Origin: a virus
Lineage: Duplodnaviria; Heunggongvirae; Uroviricota; Caudoviricetes
Virus record (IMG/VR): IMGVR_UViG_3300045988_155334
Reading direction: 5' to 3' (one strand)
Length of the DNA: 64,000 nucleotides
Each line of letters begins with the position of its first letter. The first letter of the stretch is position 1. This document shows, one piece after another, positions 33,162-33,858 of the stretch. A model generated the notes under the pieces. That model did not search any database, was not told the DNA's origin, and was given only the letters and a program-made list of their open reading frames with translations. A program made the translations under genes and the position numbers.

Positions 33162-33587
33162 ATGCTCGGCATTCTCAAAAAGAAATTCCGCAAAGCGGCT
33201 GGCGGAGTCAAGAAGATGGAAAACCGTGATGCGGTGGAAGCGACTGTCTGGGGCGCATATTCCATTGCATACTCTGACGGCACCTGCGATGCGAAAGAAA
33301 TTGCAGTATTGGAAAAAACCATTGCAGCACTTCCTGCCTTTGCGCCGTTCTCCGGTGAAATTGCCCAGATGAGCGCCAATATTCGCGCTCAATATGAAGC
33401 CTCGCCGCGCCGAGCGAATGCCCAGGCTTTACGTGAACTGGCTGACGTGTCTGGAACTAATGATGCGGTAGATGTTCTGTGCCTATGCATTGATATTGCT
33501 GACCAGGATGGCATTGGGGCAGAAGAGCAGGAGCAATTGAAGAAAATTGCCCAGGCTCTTCAATTGCCACTGGAACAGTATATCTGA
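33162..33587 (+). CDS. tciA: TciA, TerB-like domain protein
   Basis: 141 aa; TerB-like pattern; stop overlaps the next start (TGATG). Confidence 0.65.
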   Translation: MLGILKKKFRKAAGGVKKMENRDAVEATVWGAYSIAYSDGTCDAKEIAVLEKTIAALPAFAPFSGEIAQMSANIRAQYEASPRRANAQALRELADVSGTNDAVDVLCLCIDIADQDGIGAEEQEQLKKIAQALQLPLEQYI

Positions 33588-33751
33588 TGGTTATAAAAGC
33601 ACGTCTAATTCTGGCTTTGGTTTTTCTCGTGCTATCTGTGCTGGTGGATTTCACCAGCACAATCCTGTCGGTTTTATCCGACGGGGCGTTGGTAGCAGTA
33701 GCTGTAACATTGGTATGGCCGATATTTAAACCAGCCTCGAAGGATCAGTGA
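33587..33751 (+). CDS. Small membrane protein (TciB-like)
   Basis: 54 aa, MVIKARLILALVFLVLSVLVDF...; translationally coupled to tciA and to the next ORF. Confidence 0.5.
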   Translation: MVIKARLILALVFLVLSVLVDFTSTILSVLSDGALVAVAVTLVWPIFKPASKDQ

Positions 33752-33858
33752 TGAGCTTCTGGGATTTTGCAGATAAGTATCCAATTGTTCTCATTATCAT
33801 TGTTGCCATAGTTGTAGGCGGTATTGTTAGCGCCATTGAAGCACTTAGGAAACAGTAA
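33751..33858 (+). CDS. Small single-pass membrane peptide (TciC-like)
   Basis: 35 aa, MSFWDFADKYPIVLIIIVAIVVGGIVSAIEALRKQ. Confidence 0.5.
   Translation: MSFWDFADKYPIVLIIIVAIVVGGIVSAIEALRKQ

Follow-up and report, generated by a model that had tools for sequence, protein, structure and literature searches.

The P1-type tciABC cassette: a TerB-family phage protein translationally coupled to hydrophobic micro-proteins

The DNA analyzed here (the window) is a 64,000-nucleotide stretch of a tailed virus (Caudoviricetes; IMG/VR record IMGVR_UViG_3300045988_155334). Positions 33162-33858 (697 bp) hold three open reading frames (ORFs) on the same strand that are translationally coupled by overlaps, and the locus is almost certainly the tciA-tciB-tciC cassette of a P1-like phage-plasmid. 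The three genes and the helicase gene that follows them are:

33162-33587, + strand: tciA, ATG start, 141 amino acids, TerB-family protein
33587-33751, + strand: tciB, 54 amino acids, DUF3927 membrane protein with two hydrophobic helices
33751-33858, + strand: tciC, 35 amino acids from the ATG, or 36 amino acids from a GTG at 33748
34223-35587, + strand: ban, ORF for a DnaB-like replicative helicase, downstream member of the same annotated operon

A GAGG Shine-Dalgarno sequence lies 7 nt 5' of the tciA start. The TGA stop of tciA and the ATG of tciB share one base (TGATG), the tciB/tciC junction reads GTGATG, and tciC overlaps the tciB stop. The ORFs were judged not to be products of chance on the basis of the Pfam TerB match of TciA, the DUF3927 match of TciB and the positional recurrence of TciC; base composition across the region is unremarkable. 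The original prediction, made from the letters of the window, had described a TerB-like ORF linked by TGATG and GTGATG overlaps to hydrophobic peptides of 54 and 35 residues, and this description is borne out by the ORFs, by Pfam and by hydropathy. The genes were not recognized there as the long-annotated tciA, tciB and tciC of phage P1. The P1 genome record has carried these names for about two decades, and the finding in the window is therefore a rediscovery.

Megablast of positions 32000-34300 against phage records gave Escherichia phage JL22 at 98.2% identity and 100% coverage and phage P1 at about 97.8% identity and 93% coverage; the region containing ban is likewise 97.8% identical to P1 DNA. 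The P1 record has the order Obanab and P1ban/P2ban, trnT, tciA, tciB, tciC, trnI, ban and dbn, which is also the order in JL22, and the full P1 tciABC arrangement is present in the window (the coupled trio, the trnT and trnI flanks, ban on the 3' side and Oban on the 5' side). The P1 genes (P1_gp074-076, NC_005856) and their counterparts in P7, D6, SJ46 and JL22 agree with the window in gene content, order and overlaps, and in P1 the flanking tRNAs and ban agree as well. TciA of the window is 100% identical to that of P1, whereas TciB differs at 2 of 54 residues and TciC at 9 of 35 (13 of 108 nt), with all of the TciC changes falling within or beside the hydrophobic core. The window also has one repeat unit more than P1 in the spacer 5' of tciA. 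An identical (100%) copy of the 697-bp interval is carried by the 93-kb E. coli plasmid NZ_CP023732.1, and relatives of the cassette detectable at the DNA level are present in 674 of 5426 complete E. coli genomes.

TciA passes the Pfam TerB model (PF05099) modestly, at 28.4 bits against a cut-off of 24.4 (E=2.1e-6), and the ten phage TerB-like subtypes scored with this model all match it, the best at E=2.3e-16. The nuclear magnetic resonance structure of TerB (2jxu) was matched over 124 residues (positions 14-137 of 143) at E=1.2e-12 by a profile built from all phage subtypes. Homology of TciA to TerB thus extends over almost the entire protein and goes beyond a stray motif. A narrow profile of close TciA homologues found no match among PDB sequences. 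Those close homologues form a tight family of 141-residue proteins that are 72-100% identical and occur across Enterobacterales, and at least four TerB-like subtypes are about 30-43% identical to TciA. The AlphaFold2 model of TciA (mean predicted local distance difference test score, pLDDT, 87; predicted template modeling score, pTM, 0.83) has six helices preceded by a disordered tail (residues 1-14), a predicted all-helical fold of the TerB-like kind. Two acidic motifs, D39-G40...E46 and D116-G117...E122, are invariant or nearly so across the subtypes, and E20, D23, E66, D95 and the N-terminal residues G3-K7-K8 are also invariant. The N-terminal tail is polybasic in every subtype, with a net charge of +4 to +7 over the first 19 residues. 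TciA may be a soluble, cytoplasmic protein whose basic tail may aid binding to the membrane.

TciB matches DUF3927 (PF13064) across the complete profile (positions 1-53 of 53; E=2.7e-29; 101.3 bits against a cut-off of 25) and PHROG 1470 ('TciB-like') at E=2.5e-22. Its grand average of hydropathy (GRAVY) is 1.45 and its 15-residue Kyte-Doolittle maximum is 3.0, with two hydrophobic stretches. Alignment of five TciB types, those of P1, lambdoid phages, a phage-plasmid of about 108 kb, N4-like phages and phage 434, showed 39-46% identity with D21-F22-T23, D32-G33, L14, L35 and P45 invariant. Basic residues are present at both ends of the protein, which by the positive-inside rule suggests a hairpin with both N and C termini in the cytoplasm. 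In an AlphaFold2 model of the natural TciA-TciB read-through fusion (P0003), which was run with TciA alignment rows only, the TciB portion is predicted at low confidence to be two helices with a break at TciB residues 30-34 (LSDGA). In the index of the assembly collection, the most frequent DUF3927 variant is listed for more than 10,000 blocks.

TciC (GRAVY 1.21; 15-residue Kyte-Doolittle maximum 3.5; one hydrophobic stretch) has a single match, PHROG 23152 (E=2e-26), and forms just two clusters among 1.84 billion representative proteins. It was traced through its DNA context and a search of representative proteins; tblastn of the 35-residue sequence against phages returned nothing, probably owing to the low-complexity filter. 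P1, P7, D6 and many IMG/VR contigs all have TciC in this place, with a conserved N-terminal motif of the FWDFADK type. A TciC-like peptide follows tciB only in P1/P7/D6-like elements, where tRNA(CAU) always comes next, within 4-9 nt. In D6 (about 3150-3270 of locus L018) there is an unannotated TciC-like ORF of 37-38 residues, followed by tRNA(CAU), and in the E. coli matches listed from RefSeq, annotation covers the TerB and DUF3927 genes and not tciC. The tciC gene is a genuine micro-protein gene, overlooked in RefSeq annotation. P1-like elements carry at least two alleles of it, which differ by 13 nt, whereas tciA, although far longer, differs by 1 nt. In P7 a diverged TerB is accompanied by a TciB like that of P1 and by an identical TciC. 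NCBIfam gave no useful match for TciA, TciB or TciC, and none of the three matched a holin, antiholin or known superinfection-exclusion family in Pfam, PHROG or NCBIfam, where the matches were TerB, DUF3927, the tci PHROGs and noise below threshold.

The original prediction treated the three genes as one unit. The coupled trio is there in the window, but the unit conserved elsewhere is the pair of TerB-like and DUF3927 genes, and TciC is confined to the P1/P7/D6 group. Of 80 IMG/VR loci retrieved with the TciB profile, 79 contain an ORF with the DUF3927 motif, and in 59 of these an intact TerB-like gene lies directly upstream and overlaps the tciB start by 1 or 4 nt. Junctions of the pair are always tight (-4, -1 or 0 nt), being GTGA/ATGA, TGATG/TAATG, or TAA followed by ATG. 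The other 20 loci have an intact DUF3927 ORF and no intact upstream ORF of at least 80 residues; five of these were read, and all five have the same TerB-like gene with a frameshift and an in-frame stop. In these loci (among L069-L098, IMG/VR fragments of lambdoid prophages) a tRNA(CAU)-Arg-Arg array lies upstream, as in Shiga toxin (Stx) phages.

Outside the P1 group the pair occupies three further settings. In lambdoid prophages it lies between the Q antiterminator gene and the holin-endolysin genes, and in phage-plasmids of about 108 kb, including PhiR41_1, Cyrano and Klebsiella phage-plasmids, it is near RNase H and DUF4942 genes. In the virulent N4-like Schitoviridae (Pollock, FSL SP-058) the pair is annotated near dUTPase and replication genes, and the gene that comes after it is not hydrophobic. 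The TerB-DUF3927 pairing thus occurs in four phage lineages, virulent ones among them, and it has exceptions. In phages 434 (2112-3344 of locus L015) and 2B8, DUF3927 is flanked by a 247-residue multi-pass membrane protein and by a 62-residue ORF that overlaps an STnc100/PasD match. The 247-residue protein of phage 434 was considered as a hidden TerB and rejected (hhalign probability 0.1). A group I intron (101 bits) lies shortly 3' of the pair in phage Pollock (3115-3467 of locus L013), with weaker intron-like matches further on.

The remaining features of the locus are:

31399-31426, both strands: Oban a/b, C1 operators overlapping the Pban promoters, annotated control point of the tRNA-tci-ban unit
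32081-32156, + strand: tRNA-Asn(GUU), found by ARAGORN; trnA of P1
32159-32234, + strand: tRNA-Thr(UGU), found by ARAGORN; trnT of P1
32235-33161, + strand: variable spacer of four degenerate direct repeats of about 200-280 nt each (families D2-D5, from alignment of the units)
33862-33937, + strand: tRNA(CAU), found by ARAGORN and Rfam; trnI of P1, annotated there as tRNA-Ile2

The operator site comprises a perfect 17-nt C1 consensus at 31399-31415 (+) and a copy with two mismatches at 31410-31426 (-); the segment is annotated Obanab/P1ban/P2ban in P1 and Op(ban) in P7. It is the sole C1 operator near the cassette and lies 1.76 kb upstream. A consensus scan of 31300-34400 gave no sigma-70-like promoter (3.2 were expected by chance). 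The lambdoid copies of the pair are in the Q-dependent late region, and N4-like phages have no lysogeny. Taken together, the upstream C1 operator, the lack of a promoter-like site in that scan, the Q-late position in lambdoid prophages and the presence of the pair in virulent N4-like phages suggest that the cassette is made during lytic growth and not in the lysogen. According to the P7 record, the tRNA genes are under the control of Op(ban). The 'dicF-like region' of P1 is conserved at 31522-31625 and ends in a hairpin at 31586-31608; Rfam gave no DicF match there at E<=0.1.

The two upstream tRNAs score 72-73 bits with the Rfam tRNA model, and tRNA(CAU) begins 4 nt past the tciC stop, a gap kept at 4-9 nt in all P1/D6-like loci examined. 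As tRNA(CAU) starts so close downstream, RNase P processing there would end the tciABC message 3 nt past the last stop codon. Placement of the genes between tRNA-Thr and tRNA(CAU), upstream of ban, had been part of the original prediction; the order is right, but about 930 bp of repeats set tRNA-Thr apart from tciA. The 3' end of this spacer is a conserved tciA leader. It consists of an STnc100/PasD-like segment at 33009-33128 (+), just 5' of tciA, that scores 39.2 bits (below the gathering score of 47), and a hairpin at 33107-33121 (CCGGG-AGGCA-CCCGG) that P1, P7 and D6 retain; in D6 a compensatory change makes the stem CCTGG...CCAGG. In phage 434 a match to the STnc100 family of Rfam lies immediately 3' of tciB. 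TerB is named in a 2026 preprint as one of the conserved genes found within 10 kb of the related small RNAs PasA and PasC.

P1 annotates plp and upl on the opposite strand over the spacer repeats; the P7 record has neither annotation, and so plp and upl may not be real genes. The extra repeat unit of the window relative to P1 is shared by JL22, and Stx phage 1720a-02 has non-coding DNA with 97.8% identity to this extra piece. The non-coding segment 33939-34122, in the gap that separates ban from tRNA(CAU), shares 81% identity with an unannotated stretch of the same Stx phage that adjoins the repeat-unit homologue, and it matched no Rfam family. Spacer length varies among relatives, in which real tRNA-Ser(UGA) or tRNA-Tyr genes occur there. 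An origin of the repeats from decayed tRNA genes was considered, given that one unit has the motif GGTTCGAATCC and that relatives have tRNA-Ser or tRNA-Tyr at this place, but it is no more than conjecture, as the repeat units gave no match to the tRNA model even at E<=5.

Linkage to tRNA genes recurs among the relatives. P1/D6-like loci have tRNA-Asn, Tyr, Arg, Thr or Ser upstream of the cassette and tRNA(CAU) downstream, and in lambdoid prophages a tRNA(CAU)-Arg-Arg or Thr-Gly array ends about 190-640 nt 5' of the TerB-like gene. The P1 tRNA(CAU) is 86% identical to a lambdoid tRNA(CAU). We infer that this linkage reflects a mobile accessory block that the phages share, set within strongly transcribed lytic operons, rather than a functional tie between the tRNAs and the proteins.

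The published record on the tci genes themselves is short. In a genome-wide CRISPR interference (CRISPRi) study of P1vir on E. coli BW25113 all three genes were nonessential, with efficiencies of plating of 0.65 (tciA), 0.99 (tciB) and 1.3 (tciC), and our statement that tci is dispensable is taken from this literature. The original prediction would have been refuted by an absence of any phenotype, and the lack of a plating defect on knock-down goes part of the way to that outcome. A survey of 77 P1-like phage-plasmids counted tciABC as one of eight highly variable regions, found the operon lost in nearly half of subgroup 1 and raised the question of phage inhibition. In a 2025 preprint tci transcripts were deregulated in an hfq host and were grouped with cell-division control by annotation only; the P1 record assigns tci function by homology. 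No functional study of the tci genes was found in the literature, in line with the original prediction, which gave them no established function. More has been reported of their relatives. TerB of ter operons is reported to be membrane-associated, and a complex of TerB with TerC, an integral membrane protein, has been described. The ter cluster confers resistance to tellurite and to colicins, inhibits phages and responds to Te, Zn and Mn. TerB domains are present in the validated anti-phage systems Shango, Bunzi and Dionysus, and the Dionysus and Bunzi/Shango papers propose 'membrane surveillance'.

TciA and TciB probably form a membrane complex. The link of TciA to the membrane is drawn from its basic tail, from the reported membrane association of TerB and from the reported TerC-TerB complex. 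Translational coupling would supply TciA and TciB in fixed proportion, and the putative two-helix hairpin of TciB would hold or partner TciA, a soluble TerB homologue whose basic N-terminal tail may help it to bind, at the inner membrane. In the P1/P7/D6 lineage the single-helix TciC may join as a third member. As to what such a complex might do, we tentatively favor, by analogy, a lytic-phase TerB complex of the inner membrane that guards the membrane of the infected cell or has exclusion as its output. The complex would be produced in lytic development and not in the lysogen, as a small Ter-like device that senses or stabilizes the inner membrane of the infected cell such that membrane-directed attacks would fail to abort the infection. 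The attacks so countered might be DNA entry by a superinfecting phage, pore-forming colicins or membrane-acting abortive-infection effectors. A role of this conflict type is suggested because the genes are nonessential, variable and often lost, because ter clusters inhibit phages and confer colicin resistance, and because TerB domains belong to defense systems. Exclusion, one of the two candidate roles named in the original prediction, is still a guess, but it is indirectly favored to some degree by the TerB domains of Shango, Bunzi and Dionysus and by the variability and frequent loss of the cassette.

Several results weigh against a membrane-guarding TciA-TciB complex. No experimental phenotype was found for any tci gene, and PADLOC-DB v2 (E<=1) gave no defense-family match for TciA, TciB or TciC. 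Strict interdependence of the pair is contradicted by the 20 loci in which tciB persists and the TerB-like gene is not intact, and in phages 434 and 2B8 no TerB-like gene accompanies DUF3927. No natural DUF3927 domain fusion was seen among the best 120 of 771 clusters, and the model of the read-through fusion gave no confident docking (TciB pLDDT 50-66, pTM 0.65), a weak test, as TciB had no alignment depth in that run. Finally, the hairpin at 31586-31608 (+) is terminator-like, with a T-run, and lies between Pban and the tRNAs; because of it, read-through from Pban to tciA is an assumption taken from the P1 and P7 annotations.

A broader claim would be that Enterobacterales phages widely carry the pair as a conflict module whose site of action is the inner membrane during lytic growth, either as a dominant-negative mimic disarming host TerB-based surveillance or as a minimal phage-owned system that excludes competitors; we regard this generalization as doubtful. 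If it were true, the recurring presence of tRNA arrays and Pas/STnc100-type small RNAs beside the pair would identify a mobile accessory cassette common to P1-like, lambdoid and other phages.

The alternative that survives best, albeit an unlikely one, is an anti-defense decoy in which TciA, together with TciB as a pared-down substitute for the membrane partner, would block TerB-based membrane surveillance by the host; its targets could be phage inhibition by the ter operon or systems of the Shango/Bunzi/Dionysus type. Host ter operons and TerB-containing systems do inhibit phages, and homology between TciA and host TerB extends over almost the complete protein. From its genomic position the cassette would be expressed early or lytically, and virulent phages also carry the pair; the cassette is accessory and often lost, and the pair is spread over unrelated phages that share Enterobacterales hosts. 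Against this, ter operons are only patchily present in Enterobacterales. To our knowledge K-12 lacks a ter operon, and for that reason a decoy would lie outside the reach of the CRISPRi screen. The Shango and Dionysus experiments considered here, moreover, were done in Pseudomonas.

Somewhat less likely again is a toxin-antitoxin or abortive-infection module in which TciB and/or TciC depolarize the membrane, the other candidate role named in the original prediction, and TciA is the regulator or antidote. The strong hydrophobicity of both peptides, the invariant acidic residues in or beside the TciB helices and the pore-forming partners that accompany a TerB protein in Dionysus speak for such a module. 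However, 20 of the 79 viral loci keep an intact tciB beside a TerB-like gene that is not intact, which ill fits an essential antidote. No known toxin family was matched in Pfam, PADLOC or NCBIfam, and TciC is absent from most lineages that carry the pair.

The lambdoid location, directly 5' of the holin-endolysin genes and 3' of Q, raises the further thought of a lysis-timing modulator with an antiholin-like or holin-accessory function. This is very unlikely, as the pair lies away from lysis genes in P1, P7, D6, the phage-plasmids of about 108 kb and N4-like phages, and knock-down caused no plating defect. The gap between Q and the holin gene is, besides, a general site for accessory genes. 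Inhibition of host cell division, a third meaning of the 'tci' name that derives from filamentation by terZABC of plasmid R478, has the literature on filamentation with ter genes including terB behind it, as well as the P1 annotation and the 2025 preprint, which group tci with cell-division control; yet the assignment is by homology only and P1 already encodes others so grouped, such as icd and kilA, and we consider it highly improbable. Least probable of all is lysogenic conversion to tellurite, metal or colicin resistance, for although the gene name, the TerB homology and the response of ter operons to Te, Zn and Mn point that way, the cassette sits behind a C1 operator and the pair occurs in strictly virulent phages also.

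The TerB domain is part of several validated anti-phage systems, and the two-gene phage version with its 54-residue partner would offer a simple system in which to learn how TerB acts at membranes. The pair is a very common phage module, and the comparative picture sharpens the question of its function without answering it. In practical terms the gain is modest, in that vectors derived from P1 have in the cassette a safe site that is not essential.

Beyond the tci genes of P1 and its relatives, a close known system is TerB of terZABCDEF (2jxu), which is homologous to TciA, belongs to the same all-helical fold class, has paired DG...E motifs and is encoded beside a membrane-protein gene. The window differs in having no terC, terD, terE, terZ or terA nearby, and no ter genes were found in its neighborhood or at any related locus examined. 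The partner in ter operons is the multi-pass TerC, whereas here it is a 54-residue DUF3927 protein predicted to form a hairpin. Unlike ter TerB, the phage TerB-like family has its own invariant N-terminal motifs, FGxFxKK and ENRD, and its genes are phage-encoded and lie in putative lytic-phase operons. Shango SngA, Bunzi BnzA and Dionysus DinB share with TciA a TerB-type domain and an accessory, variable setting, and Dionysus and Bunzi have membrane components as tci does. In contrast to these systems, tci lacks helicase, ATPase or pore-forming-toxin partners, matches no PADLOC model and is encoded by phages, including virulent ones, apparently under lytic control. Three of ten phage TerB-like proteins also match Pfam DUF533. 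Proteins of the DUF533/YebE type hold a TerB-like domain at the inner membrane, a logic to which we liken that of tci; in them the anchor is within the same polypeptide, whereas in the window the hydrophobic parts are separate, translationally coupled micro-proteins.

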